A stretch of 32,000 nt of DNA, taken from positions 4,500,001 through 4,532,000 of the forward strand of contig CP126532.1 of the NCBI GenBank assembly GCA_030167145.1, read 5' to 3'. This document shows, piece after piece, positions 9,930 through 30,425 of the stretch. A program made the position numbers and the translations under genes. Each line of letters begins with the position of its first letter. The first letter of the stretch is position 1. The DNA is from Ktedonobacterales bacterium. Lineage in GTDB: Bacteria; Chloroflexota; Ktedonobacteria; Ktedonobacterales; JADMIN01. The notes under the pieces were generated by a model. That model was not told where the DNA came from. It made no database searches and worked only from the letters and a program-made list of their open reading frames with translations.

Positions 9930-11336
9930 TCAGGGTTTCGCTGTGAGCGGCAGCCAGACGAAAAAGCGGGTTCCATCTGAGGTTGACTCGAATGATACAT
10001 CACCGTGATGCCGGTCAACGACGATCCTCCTGACAATATCCAGCCCAAGCCCAGACCCCTTGCCCACCTCTTTCGTCGTAAAGAATGGATCGAAGATGCG
10101 GGAGGCCAGATCGGGGGGAATCCCAGGTCCCTGGTCGGCAATCTCAACCAGCACAGTTTGCCCGTCGCTCCGTGTCCGAATGCGAACCTGGCCGTGCCCG
10201 TCCATAGCGTCTATCGCATTGTCAATCAAGTTTGTCCAAACCTGATTTAACTCGCTTCCGTTAGCAAAGACGCGCGGCAGATTGTCCTCGTAGTCGCGAA
10301 TGACCTCAACTCCCTCCCGGAGTTTGTAGCCGAGGATTACCAGGGTCTTTTCGATACCTTCATGAATATCAACCTCCTGTTCGGGCGAACGATCCATGTA
10401 CGAATAGTCCTTGACCACGGAGACCAGCCGAGAGATCCGAGCAGTGGCGTCTTCGATTTGGTCCAGGAGATCCGTAACGAGTAGGGTGTCGGCCACCCAG
10501 TTGAAAGCACCGCTGCGATTGTTATCGCCTAGCGCATGTGCCGCTGTTTCCAACCAGGGAAGATCAAGGCCAGCGGCAACGAACGTAGGTGCGAGATCCC
10601 ATGGGTTCGCAACATTATGCTCTTCCAGCCAACTCGCGATCTCCTCCTCTTGCCGCCCCGTCTCTATCGCGCTGAGCCGTGGTACGGCAGCGGAGTGGGC
10701 CACTGCCTCTGACTGGATCTGTAATACTGCCCGGACCTGCTCTGGCGTGAGTTCGCCTGTCGCGAGCCAGTCAACGAGTGCCAGCAGCCGACCCACTGCC
10801 GCCCGCATGTCAGCGGTGGCGCTCCTGGCGGCGGCAGCGGGATTGTTCAACTCGTGAGTCAACCCGGCAGCAAGTGTTCCCAATGAGATCAGGTGACCTC
10901 GTTCGCGCACCGTAACCTCGATGAACTCAAGAGTTTGAACGTAGCCATCGAGCAGATGCTTCGCCATAGGCAGCCATTCGTCCAGCAGGTGGCCAAAATC
11001 ACTTGAGGCGAGTTGGAAGAAACGACTTGGCCGCAGCGTCTCTCCGGTAGCGCGATACCCACTGCTTTCGCCTGAGGCGGCAAATGCACGGATACCACCA
11101 GCATAGGTGCCGGGACGTGATAGCGTTGCGACGACGATCCGCTGGCCACCCACATGACGTGTGAGTTCCAGTTCTCCATCGAGCAACACCCAGAGGAAAT
11201 CCGCTGGCTGGCCCTCGCGGAAGACGGTCTCCCCCGCTGGGAATGCGATTTCGGTGCCCAACTCCGCAAGGGCGTGGAGTTGCTCGTCAGAGAGCTTCTC
11301 GAAGAGGAAGGTGGACCGCAGATCGTCAATAAGCAT
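9930..11336 (-). CDS. Sensor histidine kinase with N-terminal cyclic-nucleotide-binding-like (CAP_ED) domain, no TM segments
   Basis: The start MLIDDLRSTFLFEKLSDEQLHALA...FREGQPADFLWVLLDGELEL shows the CAP_ED fold. H-box LAAGLTHELNNP, N-box NLIDNAIDAM, G1 DQGPGI, G2 GKGSGLGLDIV. The ATG at 11336-11334 overlaps the upstream stop (TAATG). Confidence 0.9.
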   Translation of the reverse strand: MLIDDLRSTFLFEKLSDEQLHALAELGTEIAFPAGETVFREGQPADFLWVLLDGELELTRHVGGQRIVVATLSRPGTYAGGIRAFAASGESSGYRATGETLRPSRFFQLASSDFGHLLDEWLPMAKHLLDGYVQTLEFIEVTVRERGHLISLGTLAAGLTHELNNPAAAARSATADMRAAVGRLLALVDWLATGELTPEQVRAVLQIQSEAVAHSAAVPRLSAIETGRQEEEIASWLEEHNVANPWDLAPTFVAAGLDLPWLETAAHALGDNNRSGAFNWVADTLLVTDLLDQIEDATARISRLVSVVKDYSYMDRSPEQEVDIHEGIEKTLVILGYKLREGVEVIRDYEDNLPRVFANGSELNQVWTNLIDNAIDAMDGHGQVRIRTRSDGQTVLVEIADQGPGIPPDLASRIFDPFFTTKEVGKGSGLGLDIVRRIVVDRHHGDVSFESTSDGTRFFVWLPLTAKP

Positions 11337-19299: not shown

Positions 19300-20316
19300 T
19301 CATCCTTCCGCGCGCTCCGCATAGAATGCCGCGATGGCGCGGGCGTAGCTGGCGATGCTGGCGCACAGTTCCGGTGGCTCCAAGACCTCGACCTCCGCGC
19401 CCATCCCCAGGAGGTTGGTGCGTGCGCCCTCCATCGTCTGGAACATCAGCGGCAGGGTCGTCCAGCCTTCGCCGTCGGGCGGACCGGCCTGGGCGATCAC
19501 ATCATAGATGCTCTCGCCAAAGTAGTGGTGCAGGTTGGGCAGCAGGTCCGGAGCGACGCGCACCAGCACGGGATATTGCCCCCAGCTTGAGACGAATCGG
19601 CTGGCAGACGCGGCCCAGAAGCTCGCCAGGTCGAAGTCACCGGCGCGCTCGAAGCGCGCATCAGCCATCTCTGCCGCACGGATGCGCGAGACCCGGTAGA
19701 CACGCGGCTCATTCCCGTCCGCGCCATTGTCGCTGCCAGCGTCGCCACTGCGCTCGGTCCGCGCTACCAGATACCAGATGCTCGCCTTTGCTACCAGCCC
19801 CAGCGGCTGCATCACGCGCTCCACCACTTCGCCATCACCGCGCCGGTAGGTCACGCGCACACAGCGGTCCTGCCAGAGGGCCTCTTGCAGCAGCCCCAGG
19901 AATGGCGTTTCCTCATCGGTATTGCCCCAGCCCGCTGCGTCCACGTGGATACGGCGGCGCGCGCGTTCGGCATCGGCGCGCAGCCGCGCGGGCAGCGCCG
20001 CCAGCAGCTTTAGCAGCGCGCCTTCCAATGCGCTGCCCATGCCCAGGTCCGCCAGCGGACGTGCTGCGCCGGAGAGGAAGAGCGTCCGTACCTCTAGTTC
20101 GCTCAGGCCGGTTAGGGTGGTGCGGTAGCCTTCGAGCAGGCCACAGCCGCCCGGCCCGCGCTCGGCGTAGACCGGCACGCCCGCTATCCCCAGTGCGCTC
20201 AGGTCGCGGTAGACGGTGCGCTCGGAGACTTCCAGGCGTTCGGCGAGTTCTCTGGCCGTGGTGCGCCCGCGCGCCTGCAAGATCAGCAGCAGAGAGAGCA
20301 GCCGGTCGGCGCGCAT
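19300..20316 (-). CDS. HTH + WYL domain transcriptional regulator (YafY/PafBC-like)
   Basis: N-terminal RLLSLLLILQARGRTTARELAERLEVSERTVYRDLSAL, which is HTH_11/DeoR-like. Central WYL domain VRVTYRRGDGEVVERVMQPLGLVAKASIWYLVA. A C-terminal extension domain follows. GGGAGG lies 8 nt upstream of the ATG. Confidence 0.9.
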   Translation of the reverse strand: MRADRLLSLLLILQARGRTTARELAERLEVSERTVYRDLSALGIAGVPVYAERGPGGCGLLEGYRTTLTGLSELEVRTLFLSGAARPLADLGMGSALEGALLKLLAALPARLRADAERARRRIHVDAAGWGNTDEETPFLGLLQEALWQDRCVRVTYRRGDGEVVERVMQPLGLVAKASIWYLVARTERSGDAGSDNGADGNEPRVYRVSRIRAAEMADARFERAGDFDLASFWAASASRFVSSWGQYPVLVRVAPDLLPNLHHYFGESIYDVIAQAGPPDGEGWTTLPLMFQTMEGARTNLLGMGAEVEVLEPPELCASIASYARAIAAFYAERAEG

Positions 20317-23619: not shown

Positions 23620-24921
23620 CTATGCCTGGCCCGCTGGCACCGCAGTAAGTTCGCGGATGCCCGCCGCGAGCGTATCCAGCGCGGTATTCAGGTCGTCATC
23701 TGCGATCATCAGCGGCGGTTGGATGCGCGCGACATTGCCTTCGGTGCCGCCGACGCCGATCAGCACGCCATGCTCGCGGCAGTAGCGGCGCAGGTCCTTG
23801 GCCAGCGCGGCATCGGGCGTCTTGGCGGCGCGGTCGCGCACCAGCTCAACGCCGATCATCAGACCCAGGCCGCGCACATCGCCGATGGCGGGAAGTTCGG
23901 CTTGGAGCGCGCGCAGCCGTTGCTGCGCAGCGGCGCCTTTGCGTGCGGCTTGCCCCGGCAGGTCGTCGCGGAGCATGACTTCGACGTTGGCGAGTCCGGC
24001 GGCGCAGGCGACGGGATTGCCGCCGAAGGTGCTGAGGTGTTCGCCAGGGCGCAGCGAGTCAGCGATCTCTTCGCGGGCAATAGTGGCGGCGAGCGGGAAG
24101 CCGTCGCCGATGCCTTTGGCCATAACCAGAATGTCTGGCTCAACGCCAAAATGCTCGATGGCGAAGAGTTTGCCGGTGCGGCCAAAGCCGCTCTGCACCT
24201 CATCGGCGATGAGCAGGATGTTGTAGCGGTCGAGGATCTCTTTGACGCGGCGCAGATAGCTGGGCGGTGGGACGATCATGCCGCCTTCGCCCATCACTGG
24301 CTCGATGATGAAGGCCGCGACATCGCCGCTGGTGTGGAAGCGGATGGTGTCCTCGATGGCCTGAGCGGCGCGCTCCGCAACTACTTCGGGGTCATCGCCG
24401 AAGAGCGAGCGATAGGTGAACGGTGCAGGGGAGAAGGCGACGCCGCTACTGTAGGGACCGCCGTGGGTCTTACGACCCATATTGCCAGTGATGCTGAGCG
24501 TACCGAGTGAGCGCCCGTGGAAGCTGCGTTCCAGGGCGATGATCTCGCGCTTGCCGGTGAAGGCTTTGGCGAGTCGCAACGCCGCTTCGATGCCTTCAGC
24601 GCCGCTGTTGGAGAAGAAGGTCTTTTGCAGGCGATCCGGTGTGATTTCGGCGAGGCGTTCGGCCAGGTCGGCCACTGGCTCGACGTAGTAGGTGTATGAG
24701 CTACAGTGGATCAGCTTGTCAATCTGCCGCTTGGCGGCCTCACGAACTTCCGGGTTGCCGTGGCCCGCGTTGACGACGGCGATTCCGGAATAGCAGTCAA
24801 TGTAGCGTTTGCCAGATTCATCGTAGACATAGGCGCCGTCGGCGTGCGTAACCACGAGTGGTTCGAAGCCAGCGATGCTGCTTGTGGTGACGTAGCGTGC
24901 GTACTTTTCACGTGTATCCAT
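23620..24921 (-). CDS. Class III (omega) pyridoxal-phosphate aminotransferase
   Basis: 433 aa. SGIAVVNAGHGNP, FSNSGAEGIEAALRLA, LLIADEVQSGFGRTG, and PLP-lysine context ILVMAKGIGDGFP. AAGGAGG lies 6 nt upstream of the ATG. Confidence 0.9.
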   Translation of the reverse strand: MDTREKYARYVTTSSIAGFEPLVVTHADGAYVYDESGKRYIDCYSGIAVVNAGHGNPEVREAAKRQIDKLIHCSSYTYYVEPVADLAERLAEITPDRLQKTFFSNSGAEGIEAALRLAKAFTGKREIIALERSFHGRSLGTLSITGNMGRKTHGGPYSSGVAFSPAPFTYRSLFGDDPEVVAERAAQAIEDTIRFHTSGDVAAFIIEPVMGEGGMIVPPPSYLRRVKEILDRYNILLIADEVQSGFGRTGKLFAIEHFGVEPDILVMAKGIGDGFPLAATIAREEIADSLRPGEHLSTFGGNPVACAAGLANVEVMLRDDLPGQAARKGAAAQQRLRALQAELPAIGDVRGLGLMIGVELVRDRAAKTPDAALAKDLRRYCREHGVLIGVGGTEGNVARIQPPLMIADDDLNTALDTLAAGIRELTAVPAGQA

Positions 24922-25044
24922 GGATACCTCCTTCTGTTGCCCGCCATTCTACGTGATTGTCATTTTGTGGCGAAAGTGTCGCCGCGTCAAATGTTTCGCG
25001 GCGTGAGTAGGCCAGACTGTCCTGATGGGTGGCAAGGGGTACCG

Positions 25045-25915
25045 GCTTTCGGCCATATGGGGGTGGCCGACTCGGCCATGAATGGCCGGAGCACGGGCGC
25101 GAAGGCATGAATGCCAGGGCATCCCGTAGCGAGGGGAGCGCAGAGTGGCCGAAATGGCCGATGTGCGCGTGGGTGGGGGCAAATGACAAGACATGATCGC
25201 AACTGACGGTAGATTTTTCGCCGTTTTCGCCGCAATTTCGGATATGTGTGGTGGCCGAAATGGCCGATAGTCGCACTCGCTGCTGAAGTATGGCGGTTGC
25301 CGAAGTTGCCGATTCTGCCGATTTGCATGGTGGTGTGAGGGGAAATGACGGGAAGTGGCTGATGATGTCCGGGAAATTTTCGCCGTTTTCGCCGCAATTT
25401 TGTATCGGCGGAGTTGCCGATGTGGCCGATGTGGCCGCAATGGCAGTTGCCGATTCTGCCGATATTTGCATGATGTGAATTGCTGGTGGCCGATGTGGCC
25501 GATATTTGCATGCGCGTATGGAGGGCGAATGGGCTGGTGCAGAAAGCTCTCGGCACGAATGCCGCCGGTACTTCCGTACAAGCGGATCGCGGAGTGGCCG
25601 ATATGGCCGATTTTTGCGGATGGGTGGGGACGAATGACGGGTATTGACTGGACGTTGGGAGAGATTTTTCGCCGTTTTCGCCGCAATTTCGCGTTGTGTG
25701 CGCTCTCGGCCATGAATGGCCGGAGCAGAGGCGATGAGGAATGAATGCCCAGAGGCGCGCCCGTAGGGCGGTGGCCGGTGTGGCCGATAATCGCAGTTGC
25801 CAGAGTTGCCAGAGTTGCCGATTCTGCCGATTTTTGCATTTTGTGGAGTGCCACTGGCCGATATGGCCGATAGTGTACGCACATGCGCGTGTCCTTCGCA
25901 GTGGCGGATGGGTCG
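25045..25915. repeat. Composite non-coding repeat block (9-nt motif runs, 18-, 23-, 24- and 30-nt exact repeats, three about 95-nt composite units)
   Basis: Direct reading. The 18-mer GTGGCCGAAATGGCCGAT occurs at 25145 and 25251. GTTGCCGATTCTGCCGAT occurs at 25305, 25446 and 25814. AGATTTTTCGCCGTTTTCGCCGCAATTTCG occurs at 25211 and 25662, with a core copy at 25377. CTCGGCCATGAATGGCCGGAGCA occurs at 25071 and 25705. See the findings for detail. Confidence 0.85.
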
Positions 25916-26080
25916 TATCTGGGTAGTGTAGCATGCGGAGCGGGTGGGAGTGGATGGTCACGTGGGGACAGATACGGTCGGGTGCGGACACGAGGAGATG
26001 GGGAGTTAAGGAGATGGGGATGAGGTGGGAGGCTGGTGAAAGAGGAGCAAATAGCGCAGTACAGACCCCGATTTCTGGCA

Positions 26081-26108
26081 TTGTGTCGCGTTCGCTTTCT
26101 GGTACAAT
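26081..26108 (+). promoter_or_regulatory. Candidate extended -10 promoter of the isoaspartyl peptidase gene
   Basis: TTGTGT (26081-26086), a 16-nt spacer, then TGG-TACAAT (26100-26108). The 5' UTR carries a CTCGCT-GCGAG-AGCGAG hairpin, and GGGAGG lies 9 nt before the ATG. Confidence 0.4.
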
Positions 26109-26168: not shown

Positions 26169-27161
26169 ATGGGGCTTGCACTGATTGTTCATGGTGGCGC
26201 GGGGGCGATGGCGCGCGAGCGCTATGACGCGGCGCGCGAGGGCTGCCGTGAGGCAGCGGTGGCGGGCTGGCGCGTGCTGCGCGCGGGCGGGTCGGCGCTG
26301 GATGCGGTGGAGAAGGCGATCAGCGTGCTCGAAAACAATCCGGGATTCAATGCCGGGACGGGCGGCGTGCTGACGACGGATGGACGGGCGCAACTGGACG
26401 CGGGCATCATGGACGGCGAGACGCTGGATGCGGGCGCAATCGCGGGTGTGGAGCGCATCAAGAATCCGATTCAGGTTGCGCGCAGGGTACTCGCCAGCCC
26501 GCATGTGCTGCTGATCGGCGCGGGCGCGGAGAGCTTCGCCACGGATTCGGGCATTGCGCTATGTGATCCGAGCGAACTGGTGACCCCCGCGCAGTATGCG
26601 CGCTGGCAGCGCGGCTATGGCCTGGGCGATGATGTGAATGTGGGTGACCGGGTGGATGTGGGCGCGGGCCTGGGCGCGATTGACATGGAAGCGGAGCCAG
26701 GGACGCGGAATGGCGCGTATGCGGATGACGAGCCGGTTCATGCCGATGCGCACAAGCATGGCACGGTGGGGGCGGTGGCGGTGGATGCGCGCGGTGTGGT
26801 GGCGGCGGGGGCTTCGACGGGGGGAATCGCGGCCAAGCATCCAGGGCGGGTGGGCGATACGCCGATTGTGGGTGCGGGCTTCTATGCAGAAAATGGGCTG
26901 GGCGGCGTCTCCAGCACGGGACATGGCGAAGACTTCATCCGCCTGCTGCTGGCGCGGCGTGCGCTGGACTACATCGCGGCGGGCAGTTCGGCGCAGGCGG
27001 CGGCGACCAAAGCGATGCAACTGCTGAGCAGGCGGGTGGGTGGCAGCGGTGGGCTGATATTGCTGGATGGACAAGGCCGTGTCGGCTACGCCCGGAACTC
27101 GCCGACGATGGCGCACGCTTTCATCGTCGAGGGGATGGATGTGCCGTTCGCTGGGGTGTGA
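26169..27161 (+). CDS. Isoaspartyl peptidase / L-asparaginase (Ntn-hydrolase, asparaginase_2 family)
   Basis: 330 aa. LIVHGGAG, NPGFNAGTGGVLT, autoprocessing site HGTVGAVA, GRVGDTPIVGAG and TGHGEDFIR. Confidence 0.9.
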   Translation: MGLALIVHGGAGAMARERYDAAREGCREAAVAGWRVLRAGGSALDAVEKAISVLENNPGFNAGTGGVLTTDGRAQLDAGIMDGETLDAGAIAGVERIKNPIQVARRVLASPHVLLIGAGAESFATDSGIALCDPSELVTPAQYARWQRGYGLGDDVNVGDRVDVGAGLGAIDMEAEPGTRNGAYADDEPVHADAHKHGTVGAVAVDARGVVAAGASTGGIAAKHPGRVGDTPIVGAGFYAENGLGGVSSTGHGEDFIRLLLARRALDYIAAGSSAQAAATKAMQLLSRRVGGSGGLILLDGQGRVGYARNSPTMAHAFIVEGMDVPFAGV

Positions 27162-27301: not shown

Positions 27302-30058
27302 TCAGCCGCCCGCGAGTTGTTCGCGCCGCGCGCTCAGCTTGGCCAGCGTATCTTCCGCCGCCGCCAGCGCCTCGCGCTCTTTCTGGACCACATCGGGCCG
27401 CGCACGTGCTACGAAGTTCGGATTGTCCAGCATCTTGCGCGAGCGTTCGATAACGCCGCGTGCCTGCTCCATCTCTGCCGCCAGTCGCGCTAGCTCTTTC
27501 TCCACGTCCAGCAGCCCCGCCAGCGGTAGGTAGATCTCCACCCCGCCCGCGACCAGCGCCATCGCCTGCTCTGGCTTGCTCGCCAGCGTCCGCTCGACCT
27601 TCGGCGGCTCGGTGCGCGCCAGTTGCTCGATCAGCGCGCTCTGCTTGCGCAGCGCCGCTGCCTTCGCCCCCGCGATGAGGATCACGCGCACGCGGCGGGA
27701 AGGCTCGACCTCCGCCTGTTTACGTGCGTCACGTATCCGCGTGATGATCTCTTGCAGCAGCGCGAACTCCTCTTCCGCCGCCGTCTCGCGCTGGCGATCT
27801 GCCGCCGTGCCAGGCTCCGGCCACGCCGCCAGCATCAACGCTTGCGCTGGCCGCTCGCCCTCCTCGGAACGGCTCGGACGTTGGCTCTCGCTCCGCTCGC
27901 CCTCCGGCGTATCGGCGTAGAGATGCTGCCACACTTCTTCGGTGACGAACGGCATGAACGGATGCAGCAGCCGCAGCGCGCGATCCAGCGTCGCCCGCAG
28001 GATGCCCGCCGTGCGCTCGCGCTGCGCCGCATCGCGCAACTGGCCCTTGGCGATCTCCAGATACCAGTCGCAGTACTCCGACCAGAAGAACTCGAAGATC
28101 TGGCGGCCGGCCTCGCCGAACTGGAACTCGCTCAGCAGCCGCGTCACCTCGACTGTCAGCCCCTGCGCCCGGCTCACGATCCAGCGGTCCGCCAGCGACT
28201 TCGGCTGCACCGCCTCCAACGCGGGAATCCCACCGCCTATACCCTCCGTCTGGCCGATGACGAAGCGCGCCGCGTTCCAAATCTTGTTGGCGAAGTTGCG
28301 ATTGCCAGCGATGCGATTCATCGAGAGCTTGGTATCATTCCCCGGCGTGCTGCTCGTCGCCAGCGTGAAGCGCAGCGCGTCGGTGCCGTACTGGTCCATC
28401 ACCTCCAGCGGGTCAATCACGTTGCCGAGCGACTTGCTCATCTTGCGGCCCTGCTCATCGCGGATCAGCCCGTGCAGATACACCGTCTCGAACGGCACGA
28501 CGCCGAGGAAGTGGATGCCCGACATCGCCATGCGCGCTACCCAGAAGAAGATGATGTCGTAGCCTGTCTCCATCACCGTTGTCGGATAGAAGCGGCGTAG
28601 ATCCGGCGTGTCATCCGGCCAGCCAAGCGTGCTGAACGGCCACAGCCACGAGCTAAACCACGTATCCAGCACGTCGGGATCCTGGTGGATCTCCGCGCTG
28701 CCGCAGTGCGCGCAGACAGCGGGATCCTCACGGGCGACGGTCATCTGGCCGCAGGTGTCGCAGTACCACGCCGGGATGCGATGCCCCCACCAGAGCTGGC
28801 GCGAGATGTTCCAGTCGCGGATGTTCTCCAGCCAGTCGGTGTAGGTCTTGCCGAAGCGTTCGGGCACGATGCGCATCTGGCCGTACTTCAGTGCGCCCAG
28901 CGCGGGCGTCGCTAGCGGCGTCATCTTCACGAACCACTGTGTGGAGATCAGCGGCTCGATGATCGTATGGCAGCGCGAGCAGTGCCCCAGCGGAATCTCG
29001 TAGTCTTCGGTCTTCGCCAACAGGCCCAGCCGCGCGAACTCCGCCACCACGCCCTCGCGCGCCTCGAAGCGGTCCTGCCCGGCGAACGTGCCCGCCTGAT
29101 CGGTCATCTTGCCATCGAAGCCGATTACCTGGATGCGCTCTAAGCCGTGCCGATTGCCGATCTCGAAGTCGGTCGGGTCATGCGCGGGGGTCATCTTCAC
29201 CGCGCCGGTACCGAAGTTCTTGTCCACGGCGGCATCGGCGACGATGGGAATGCGCCGCCCCATGATCGGCAGGATCACGTAGCGGCCCACGAAGTCGCGG
29301 TAACGGTCGTCATCGGGATTGACGGCGACGCCGGTATCACCCAGGATGGTTTCGGGGCGCGTCGTCGCGACGGTGATGTAGCGCGGCTCAGTCTCGCCCT
29401 CCGCCAGTTCCAGTGGGTAGCGCATGTAGTAGAGCTTGCCCGGCGTGTTGACCACCTCGACTTCCAGATCCGAGATGGAGCTCATACAGCGCGGACACCA
29501 GTTGATGATGCGCTCGCCGCGATACGCCAGCCCCTCTTCGTAGAGCCGCACGAACACCTCGCGCACCGCCCGCGCCAGCCCCTCGTCCAGCGTGAAGCGC
29601 TCGCGTTCCCAATCGGTGGAGACGCCCAGCCGCCGGTGCTGGTTCTGGATGCGGCTCTTATAGGCGCGTACCCACTGCCACACGCGCTCGACGAACGCCT
29701 CGCGTCCCATCTGCTGGCGGTCCAGTCCCTCCTTGGCGATCTCGCGCTCGACCACAGTCTGTGTGGCAATGCCCGCATGGTCCTCGCCGGGAACCCACAG
29801 CGTCTCGTCGCCGCGCATGCGGTGATAGCGGATCATGATGTCTTCGAGGGTTGCGGTGAGCGCGTGGCCCAAGTGCAGTGCGCCGGTCACGTTCGGCGGC
29901 GGCATGCTGATGACGAATCGCTTGCCAGTGCGGCTCTCTCGCGGCTTGAAGAAGCCAGAGCTTTCCCACCAGGCATAGAGCCGCCGCTCTGTCTCTTGGG
30001 GGTCATACGCCTTGGGAATCTGGTCGAGGCGGCGTTCGGTCGCCGGTTCAGTTGTCAT
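27302..30058 (-). CDS. valS: Valine--tRNA ligase
   Basis: Class I HIGH motif PPPNVTGALHLGHA and KMSKS motif RKMSKSLGNV, with a C-terminal coiled coil. I chose the start at 30058 (MTTEPATERRLDQIPKAYDP). The track ORF extends upstream into the T-box leader. Confidence 0.95.
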   Translation of the reverse strand: MTTEPATERRLDQIPKAYDPQETERRLYAWWESSGFFKPRESRTGKRFVISMPPPNVTGALHLGHALTATLEDIMIRYHRMRGDETLWVPGEDHAGIATQTVVEREIAKEGLDRQQMGREAFVERVWQWVRAYKSRIQNQHRRLGVSTDWERERFTLDEGLARAVREVFVRLYEEGLAYRGERIINWCPRCMSSISDLEVEVVNTPGKLYYMRYPLELAEGETEPRYITVATTRPETILGDTGVAVNPDDDRYRDFVGRYVILPIMGRRIPIVADAAVDKNFGTGAVKMTPAHDPTDFEIGNRHGLERIQVIGFDGKMTDQAGTFAGQDRFEAREGVVAEFARLGLLAKTEDYEIPLGHCSRCHTIIEPLISTQWFVKMTPLATPALGALKYGQMRIVPERFGKTYTDWLENIRDWNISRQLWWGHRIPAWYCDTCGQMTVAREDPAVCAHCGSAEIHQDPDVLDTWFSSWLWPFSTLGWPDDTPDLRRFYPTTVMETGYDIIFFWVARMAMSGIHFLGVVPFETVYLHGLIRDEQGRKMSKSLGNVIDPLEVMDQYGTDALRFTLATSSTPGNDTKLSMNRIAGNRNFANKIWNAARFVIGQTEGIGGGIPALEAVQPKSLADRWIVSRAQGLTVEVTRLLSEFQFGEAGRQIFEFFWSEYCDWYLEIAKGQLRDAAQRERTAGILRATLDRALRLLHPFMPFVTEEVWQHLYADTPEGERSESQRPSRSEEGERPAQALMLAAWPEPGTAADRQRETAAEEEFALLQEIITRIRDARKQAEVEPSRRVRVILIAGAKAAALRKQSALIEQLARTEPPKVERTLASKPEQAMALVAGGVEIYLPLAGLLDVEKELARLAAEMEQARGVIERSRKMLDNPNFVARARPDVVQKEREALAAAEDTLAKLSARREQLAGG

Positions 30059-30425
30059 GCTCTCATCACCTCTCACACCAATATCGTCATCAAGAGCACA
30101 CGCCGTGCGCCCATTCGACGCTACACGAAACACGAAAAAAGCCTTCCCCGCCAAGGACGAGGGAAGGCTCGTGGTGCCACCTTGATTCGTGGCGCGCGCA
30201 CATCCGCATGTGGACGGCGCGGCCACCTCTTGGGCGCGATAACGGGCGCTCCCCGCGCGGCGCTACATTCCCATCCACGGATGGGGGTTCACGTCGCGGG
30301 CGGCCAGGGCACTTCGGCTTCGCGGACCAAGGGGCGCTCGCAGCCAGTGGCGCTCCATCTCTTGCGGTCCGCCCTAACGCCTACTCCTCCTAGTCATTGC
30401 CAGTACGTCTAATAGACTCGTATCT
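30059..30425 (-). promoter_or_regulatory. T-box riboswitch leader of valS
   Basis: The reverse strand contains, in the canonical order, GCAATGA..GGAGGAGTA (GA/K-turn plus AGTA), an AGAGA bulge, distal loop GGCTGCGA, F-box CCGTTA, and T-box sequence AATCAAGGTGGCACCACGAG (30187-30166). The T-box overlaps the 5' arm of the terminator AGCCTTCCC...GGGAAGGCT-TTTTTT (30169-30135). A GAA-GUG (Val codon) lies in the region where the specifier loop is expected. Confidence 0.85.

Follow-up and report, generated by a model that had tools for sequence, protein, structure and literature searches.

The 1.25-kb gap between the class III aminotransferase gene and the Asparaginase_2 gene in the window (the whole 32,000-nucleotide stretch of DNA that was analysed) holds one copy of a repeat element found at five loci of the same genome, and we put at about an even chance, from sequence features, that this block is a copy of a MIRU-like promoter-plus-leader cassette that shares a transcript with the downstream operon and is translated whatever the frame. 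A translated leader is likelier than a local operator because there are at least five copies, which are one-directional, carry start signals, and avoid stop codons in three frames. The cassette would comprise a head with an extended -10 motif, followed by AAGGA(G) and ATG; a body of 0.6-0.9 kb with units of approximately 100 nt, extra 9-nt boxes, and hairpin modules; and an end at which the first stops of every frame would appear only near the start codon of the co-directional gene that comes next. Transcription would start from its own promoter and run jointly through the aminotransferase/aldehyde-dehydrogenase operon, and ribosomes would translate the cassette in whichever frame they occupy. 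Ribosome cover on the C-rich, unstructured leader would give protection from Rho-type polarity, and the ribosomes would be delivered to the downstream start codon (translational coupling). The array peptide itself would be functionless, and the 9-nt (3-codon) period together with the stop-free frames would allow units to be added, removed, or rearranged with read-through intact. By analogy with MIRUs, the units are probably mobile or copy-pasted, and the cassette may now co-regulate host amino-acid/amine catabolic genes or may simply be tolerated. If this reading is true, the MIRU/RPE idea (repeats surviving by being translated) reaches another phylum with a larger modular architecture, unrelated catabolic genes acquire a common promoter and leader, and a system becomes available in which polarity control and the translation of a leader in any frame can be tested.

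Repeat elements in the gap

The features of the gap and its borders are as follows (positions are those of the window).

23620-24921, minus strand: class III aminotransferase gene (Aminotran_3), co-directional with and downstream of the array
24946-24990, minus strand: two matches to a sigma-70-like promoter, in the stretch that separates array and aminotransferase gene
24949-25884, minus strand: 311-codon ORF over the array (NCBI hypothetical protein WIG61605.1 / OJF49_004353)
24988-25957, minus strand: zone of 970 nt without stops in any of the three minus-strand frames
25043-25880, minus strand: array body (9-nt GCCG-core boxes, three core units of approximately 100 nt, T modules, and hairpin modules)
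25071-25115, minus strand: hairpin module (CGGCCAT-GA-ATGGCCG, GGCAT-GA-ATGCC), with a second copy at 25705-25749
25145-25245, minus strand: core unit 1 (box doublet, GGGG-AAATGAC, 28 nt, T module; nhmmer, 86 bits; unit alignment)
25211-25240, minus strand: T module AGATTTTTCGCCGTTTTCGCCGCAATTTCG, with more copies at 25373-25402 and 25662-25691
25305-25406, minus strand: core unit 2 (nhmmer, 84 bits; unit alignment)
Approximately 25549: hairpin-module variant CGGCACGAATGCCG
25594-25695, minus strand: core unit 3 (nhmmer, 90 bits; unit alignment)
25882-25896, minus strand: AAGGA Shine-Dalgarno sequence (25892-25896), 7 nt, and ATG (25882-25884)
25925-25933, minus strand: head TGCTACACT, extended -10-like (TGnTAnnnT)
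25966-25990, minus strand: box GGACA-N5-GGTC-N6-GGACA (plus-strand letters), upstream of the head
26100-26108, plus strand: TGGTACAAT, extended -10 motif of the divergent asparaginase gene, outside the cassette
26169-27161, plus strand: Asparaginase_2 gene

On the 3' side of the aminotransferase gene lie two aldehyde dehydrogenase genes and then a WYL regulator gene. The motif letters are given for the G-rich plus strand, and the putative sense strand is the C-rich minus strand (37% C, 21% G); the plus strand of the array is G+T-rich with a GC skew of +0.2 to +0.3. A previous reading of the sequence alone (hereafter, the sequence-only reading) had described about 24 copies of a 9-nt motif in runs of 2 to 5. 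The motif is present, and its count was revised to 21 strict 9-mers (N-[T/C]-[G/T]-GCCGA-N) and approximately 5 near variants (GCCGG, GCCGC, GCCAG) on the plus strand, in runs of 2-4; on the minus strand there are only 5, every one within the hairpin modules. The gap has 11 occurrences of the doublet pattern KGCCGANNNKGCCGAT, with 0.5 expected in the entire window, and seven tandem arrays, all of period 9, were detected there with TRF. The longer repeats of that reading were all recovered: the 18-mer GTGGCCGAAATGGCCGAT twice (25145 and 25251); the 18-mer GTTGCCGATTCTGCCGAT three times (25305, 25446, and 25814), each time with a T-rich run after it that ends in TTGCAT; a 30-mer twice and its 24-nt core three times (chance expectation, 0); and the module then put at about 85 nt, CTCGGCCATGAATGGCCGGAGCA, twice (45 nt, 87% identity). 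The CTCGGCCATGAATGGCCGG module was confirmed in the gap, and the spacing of the repeats is irregular. The block had been placed at 25045-25915; the repeats do lie there, and comparison with other copies extended the conserved element to approximately 25043-25995, including the head region at 25925-25990.

The core unit (approximately 100 nt) reads on the G-rich strand as a box doublet, a T-rich TTGC stretch, GGGG-GAATGAC, 28 nt, and the T module, and the arrays consist of 1-3 such units, extra 9-mer runs, and hairpin modules, the last being at the gene-proximal end in most arrays. In a gapless alignment of 10 core units from two organisms, the mean column identity was 77%; the T-module core (approximately 19 nt; TTTTCGCCGTTTTCGCCGC) was invariant in all 10 units and the remainder of the unit was approximately 70% identical. 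The hairpin modules share a conserved GAATG centre, with arms that vary yet remain complementary. The two ends of the unit (GCCGAT box doublet and T module) are not inverted copies of each other. Because read-through alone leaves the invariance of the T-module core and of the 9-nt GCCGAT boxes unexplained, these elements point to a factor that recognises specific DNA or RNA sequence, or to a propagation mechanism.

As stated in the sequence-only reading, transposase, RT, cas, and integrase genes are absent from the neighbouring genes. No match was obtained by BLAST against plasmid and phage sequences, and Rfam gave 0 matches at the gathering threshold in the window (up to E = 5, two chance-level snoRNA matches). 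Nothing was found in the literature on the motif strings or on Ktedonobacteria repeats. The DnaA-box, Spo0A-box, sigma-54, parS, and CodY motifs were dropped by eye, the conserved part of the box being GCCGAT and not the cores of those motifs, and an origin of replication was rejected (no dnaA gene or DnaA boxes nearby).

Copies at other loci, their heads, and their neighbours

Other copies were located via ORFs annotated over arrays, which served as proxies for the DNA. A phmmer search with the WIG61605.1 ORF against 1.84 billion representatives returned three ORFs over other copies, and no relatives besides repeat copies were found among these representatives; a second-frame query returned four ORFs on the same 5.07-Mb contig (JGI 3300045419 Ga0494333_323; NCBI locus tags OJF49_). 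Behind all ORF matches the modules occur in the same order and orientation, and all copies are strand-polar. The copies, at five loci in the window's genome and one elsewhere, are as follows.

Window: array, followed by the Aminotran_3 gene
L218: OJF49_004802 (418/418 residues identical), array, between the 3' ends of convergent genes
L220: OJF49_000444, approximately 0.50 Mb, array between co-directional genes, followed by a Carboxyl_trans gene
L221: OJF49_003118, approximately 3.26 Mb, array between co-directional genes, followed by a urocanase gene
L222: OJF49_000840, approximately 0.94 Mb, single unit inside a gene
L219: forest-soil contig of another sample, array, followed by a Hydant_A_N gene

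The sequence-only reading had envisaged a locus-specific system, which does not hold: the genome has no fewer than four other loci with the repeat, and another metagenome has one. Since L218-L222 came from called ORFs, the copy count (a lower bound) is biased and one open frame is favoured; this ascertainment bias spares the three-frame openness and the window itself. A unit HMM gave no extra copies in approximately 78 kb of same-genome flanks. The comparison of orthologous gaps proposed before led to asparaginase relatives (74-79% identity), which have other neighbours and no array. Because few loci were found, and the flanks and the asparaginase relatives are without copies, the data point to a dispersed, low-copy repeat family of a narrow lineage, with a handful of copies rather than hundreds. 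In a metagenome scan with the 18-mer TTTTCGCCGTTTTCGCCG, the matches listed were unrelated and mostly coding, and none had GCCGAT doublets. A scan of genome contigs with the 20-mer TTCGCCGTTTTCGCCGCAAT, which is weak in that the last bases of the module vary between copies, gave 7 single chance matches in unrelated phyla, the source genome being absent among them. In viral contigs the T module had no match and the triple GCCGAT pattern had 83 matches, which we take to be putative coding 9-nt (Gly-X-Y-like) repeats.

The head sequence TGCTACACT was invariant in all four arrays of the Ktedonobacterales genome. On the G-rich strand the head reads AGTGTAGCA[T/C]GCG, followed by the GGACA/GGTC box, and is invariant in four loci; the box has the same layout in L221 and variants of it were read from the sequences of L218 and L220, and it may be a regulator-binding site. 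The TGnTAnnnT pattern was 7.6-fold enriched within 150 nt upstream of genes in this genome (for example, TGGTACAAT four times, the asparaginase gene included, TGATACACT, and TGCTACGAT), and because of this enrichment the head looks like an extended -10 promoter firing on the minus strand into the array. Approximately 26-31 nt downstream of the -10 motif lies AAGGA(G). The series of AAGGA(G), 7-10 nt, ATG, and a first box doublet read as RP[HY]RP was found in the window, L218, and L221 (AAGGAG-to-ATG spacing in the latter two, 9-10 nt), that is, in three of the four same-genome arrays, the Shine-Dalgarno sequence of L220 being weak. The sigma-70-like matches at 24946-24990 may constitute a second, gene-proximal promoter; since they lie between the array and the gene, the aminotransferase operon may not need the head promoter.

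A co-directional catabolic gene with its own strong Shine-Dalgarno sequence lies downstream of four of the five arrays, and in these four none of the three frames closes before the region from -80 to +23 of the gene start codon. At the urocanase gene of L221, one reading frame terminates in an ATGA overlap and a second continues in frame into the gene; at the Hydant_A_N gene of L219, one terminates in TGATG and a second shares the frame of the gene. L218 is the exception, with no co-directional downstream gene, and its ORF extends antisense into a YtxH-like gene. That all four downstream genes are for amino-acid/nitrogen-compound catabolism, together with the conserved upstream box, suggests host use of the cassette. 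In L222, one unit lies in frame within a 635-aa gene (P0131) with the C-rich strand as sense; the flanks of this gene have a GC3 of 0.74-0.94 with strong periodicity, the unit has GC1/2/3 of 0.62/0.74/0.62, and no clear target-site duplication was seen by eye at this one site.

Stop-codon depletion

Stop counts in all frames of the minus (C-rich) strand were compared with those of 2000 dinucleotide-preserving shuffles, with the following results.

Window: 0 stops (15.1 +/- 3.0 expected), 0 shuffles as low
L219: 0 stops (11.3 expected), 0 shuffles as low
L221: 4 stops (12.7 expected), 3 shuffles as low
L220: 4 stops (11.4 expected), 3 shuffles as low
L218: 4 stops (8.7 expected), 56 shuffles as low

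Summed over the five arrays, 12 stops were found on the C-rich strand versus 59 expected, and the stops of the G-rich strand were near expectation in the shuffle comparison; the stop density of the arrays is 3.1 per kb for the C-rich strand and 31 per kb for the G-rich one. The real genes of the window, though more GC-rich, have 17 off-frame sense and 20 antisense stops per kb. When three arrays were pooled, the most depleted of the 64 trinucleotides on the G-rich strand were TTA, TCA, and CTA (together 4 observed versus 35 expected from dinucleotide frequencies), which are the reverse complements of TAA, TGA, and TAG. This depletion of stops in three frames of one strand is a translation-level signature, and, if the reading as a translated leader is true, it reflects selection for translatability without selection for a protein. 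The ORF of WIG61605.1 ends approximately 28 nt upstream of the aminotransferase start codon.

Homologous units occupy differing frames within and between loci. Because the modules fall in different frames, no conserved protein repeat is encoded, in agreement with the sequence-only reading. The same reading had called the block non-coding; the promoter-like motif, Shine-Dalgarno sequence, and ATG on the minus strand and the three-frame stop depletion make that flat call doubtful.

Described analogues and alternative explanations

By analogy, the MIRU (mycobacterial interspersed repetitive unit) is the closest described analogue of the cassette. MIRUs insert at start codons with an ORF coupled to the downstream gene, and do little harm (PMC12548453). 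As with MIRUs (roughly 50-100 bp), the units here (approximately 100 nt) are interspersed and tandemly amplifiable, their orientation follows the adjacent gene, and the ORF ends at or overlaps the start codon (four of the five arrays, L218 excepted). Unlike MIRUs, the arrays carry a promoter-like head and SD-ATG of their own, are mosaics of 0.6-0.9 kb containing nested 9-nt sub-repeats plus hairpin modules, are nearly stop-free in three frames rather than in one, and head transcription units, whereas MIRUs lie between genes within operons. The likeness is a functional analogy drawn from the description of MIRUs, the host phylum (Chloroflexota) differs, and membership is not claimed. RPEs (Rickettsia palindromic elements) and other intragenic MITEs are small repeats that lie in frame inside genes and are translated in the host protein (PMC10969869). 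The L222 unit in its 635-aa gene resembles them, but the repeat unit has no palindromic structure or terminal inverted repeats, L222 is the single intragenic copy seen (most copies being long arrays upstream of genes), and no encoded peptide is conserved. Correia, ERIC, and PMPs (putative mobile promoters) place the same promoter-bearing sequence before unrelated genes (PMC3575422, PMC10969869), as the cassette does with its promoter motif; here, however, the shared part is approximately 0.7-1 kb with a ribosome-binding site, a start codon, and a long stop-free body, and has no inverted-repeat ends.

The sequence-only reading had found no known repeat class for the block, and indeed it fits none of REP/BIME, CRISPR, or Rfam families and probably no iteron type. 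REP/BIME elements are imperfect palindromes of 20-40 nt, typically in hundreds of copies and mostly at gene 3' ends. The arrays resemble them in combining a small set of short modules, GC-rich hairpins among them, into mosaics outside annotated features, but direct 9-nt repeats dominate, the arrays lie 5' of genes, few copies were seen, strand asymmetry is strong and stops are avoided, and no RAYT-type gene was seen. Unlike CRISPR arrays (regular repeats of 24-48 nt with unique spacers), the repeats are irregularly spaced and no cas gene is nearby. Tandem 9-bp boxes are shared with iterons and operator arrays; no rep gene is nearby, and the contexts differ between copies. Rho-acting leader ORFs (tnaC, speFL, and mgtL types) have roughly 10-35 codons and encode specific sensing peptides. 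As in these systems, a translated leader would here govern a downstream, often catabolic, gene by coupling or polarity, but the ORF has 230-310 codons, is built of repeats, and is frame-agnostic.

An interspersed repeat like MIRU or RPE that is purely selfish, without host function, is possible, and on balance rather unlikely. In that case the lack of stops, the SD-ATG, and the head that resembles a promoter would reflect only the persistence of the least-disturbing copies, and the link with catabolic genes would mark where insertions are tolerated. It is consistent with the occurrence of the same cassette before unrelated genes, the unit in frame inside a real gene (L222), the L218 array with no downstream gene, the asparaginase relatives with no array upstream, the lack of codon bias, and the insertion of MIRUs at start codons with coupled ORFs (PMC12548453). 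However, all four arrays with a downstream gene precede catabolic enzymes, an improbable outcome if insertions were tolerated at random; the promoter motif is preceded by a conserved box of regulatory appearance; the core of the T module does not vary between two organisms, against approximately 70% identity in the remainder of the unit; and no mobilising enzyme was seen among the neighbours and no clear target-site duplication in L222. An amplified non-autonomous mobile element, one of the three roles suggested in the sequence-only reading, comes closest to the present results.

More speculatively, the cassette might be a new cis-acting device, which we regard as unlikely. Its body would have to be translated, in any frame, before RNA polymerase reaches the downstream gene, and it would link catabolic operons (aminotransferase-aldehyde dehydrogenase, urocanase, acyl-CoA carboxyltransferase, and hydantoinase) to translational capacity or amino-acid supply by Rho-type polarity; at the GCCGAT boxes and the invariant T module, a further factor would bind or pause.

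A protein-binding array at the DNA level (an operator, a nucleoprotein assembly, or a decoy) on the 9-bp GCCGAT boxes and the T modules, controlling the divergent aminotransferase and asparaginase promoters, is improbable. MetJ and omega-type repressors bind tandem short boxes, and the runs of 2-4 boxes in a single orientation, the invariant T-module core, and the conserved GGACA/GGTC box near the head would be in keeping with such binding. Against the operator for divergent promoters that had been suggested before, other copies are flanked by co-directional or by convergent genes or, in L222, lie within an ORF, and the promoter motif of the asparaginase gene is outside the cassette, relatives of this gene being without the array. 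DNA binding also predicts neither the complements of stop codons as the three most depleted trinucleotides nor the conserved SD-ATG.

It is very improbable that OJF49_004353 is a genuine gene for a basic, His/Pro/Arg-rich, disordered repeat protein. The promoter-like motif, the Shine-Dalgarno sequence, the ATG, the 311-codon ORF, and the paralogous ORFs at other loci would fit a gene, but GC1/2/3 of the array ORFs is flat (approximately 0.59/0.55/0.59 versus 0.68/0.47/0.78 in real genes), with no codon-position periodicity; all three frames are open; homologous units in different frames conserve no peptide; no Pfam match was obtained for the array ORFs; and the homologues among the 1.84 billion representatives are repeat copies only. 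The conceptual products (14-17% K+R, 7-10% His, and 9-13% Pro) have the composition to be expected of every frame of the C/A-rich strand.

It is highly improbable that the block is a group of small structured RNAs or of cis-regulatory RNA units, whichever the strand, as had also been proposed: the hairpin modules with their compensating arms and a region that folds somewhat better than shuffles (z = -2.5 and -3.5) agree with it, but nothing beyond chance was found in Rfam up to E = 5, the consensus folds of the 10 units reached only -2.6 and -5.3 kcal/mol, covariation being practically absent from both strands, and terminator-like sites were not above chance.

Annotation pipelines label these arrays as hypothetical proteins, and short-read assemblies break within them (for example, contig L002).

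Promoter form and flanks of the window array

Judged from sequence, the Ktedonobacterales bacterium appears to use promoters with an extended -10 element, TGnTAC(A)nT. The sequence TGGTACAAT occurred four times, in each case 5' of unrelated genes (in the window, L001, L218 and L222 sequences), and TGnTAnnnT was 7.6-fold enriched 5' of genes relative to coding sequence. The elements assigned beside the array were as follows.

Window 26100-26108: extended -10 motif TGnTAC(A)nT; further cases in L001, L218 and L222
Window 25993-26060: purine-rich tract separating the cassette head from the asparaginase promoter
Window 24962-25000, minus strand: two alternative, mutually overlapping hairpins in the stretch from the array to the aminotransferase start

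The stems of the hairpins were CGCCGCG...CGCGGCG and GGCGA...TCGCC, and the pair, which overlapped sigma-70-like promoter matches, may be an attenuator-like element. The purine-rich tract contained the SD-like sequence AGGAGATGGGG twice, as well as GAGGTGGGAGG and AGAGGAG; a comparable tract was located at the matching relative position in L218, the array between convergent genes.

Surroundings of the L218 array and the L222 unit

L218 ~10640-10690, minus strand: intrinsic terminator of the YtxH-like gene
L222 6001-7908 and 8001-8078: 635-aa gene with the in-frame unit, and adjoining features

The terminator had the clean form GGACGAGTCC...GGACTCGTC followed by TTTTTG, and adjoined the L218 array at its distal end. 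As for L222, a gene for the nucleoid-associated protein NA37 was directly 5' of the 635-aa gene (4-nt overlap), genes for tRNA-Ala(CGC) and endonuclease VII followed it, and TIR/NB-ARC and HicB genes were nearby; these surroundings may be of a mobile or defence type.

Assembly breaks and viral matches

L002 is a short-read contig of the same strain, assembled from an independent run (SRR22113990). One of its ends, position 1, corresponded to window ~25806, exactly within the 9-mer run. Short-read assembly breaks at the cassette arrays, and for this reason the arrays are probably under-represented in MAGs.

The triple pattern KGCCGATNNKGCCGATNNKGCCGAT was matched by 83 viral contigs (L135-L214), several of which were giant-virus bins; some carried two to three matches next to each other. 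The matches probably reflect coding 9-nt (three-residue) repeats that have no relation to the Ktedonobacterales cassette family.

Other genes in the window

Window 19300-20316, minus strand: WYL/HTH (PafC-like) regulator gene, last in the aminotransferase-aldehyde dehydrogenase gene string
Window 27302-30226, minus strand: ValRS ORF (mechanical call)

The WYL/HTH protein is a candidate local regulator. The start codon of the ValRS gene is uncertain; the mechanical ORF gave 974 aa from a GTG start, versus 918 aa in the JGI gene call.
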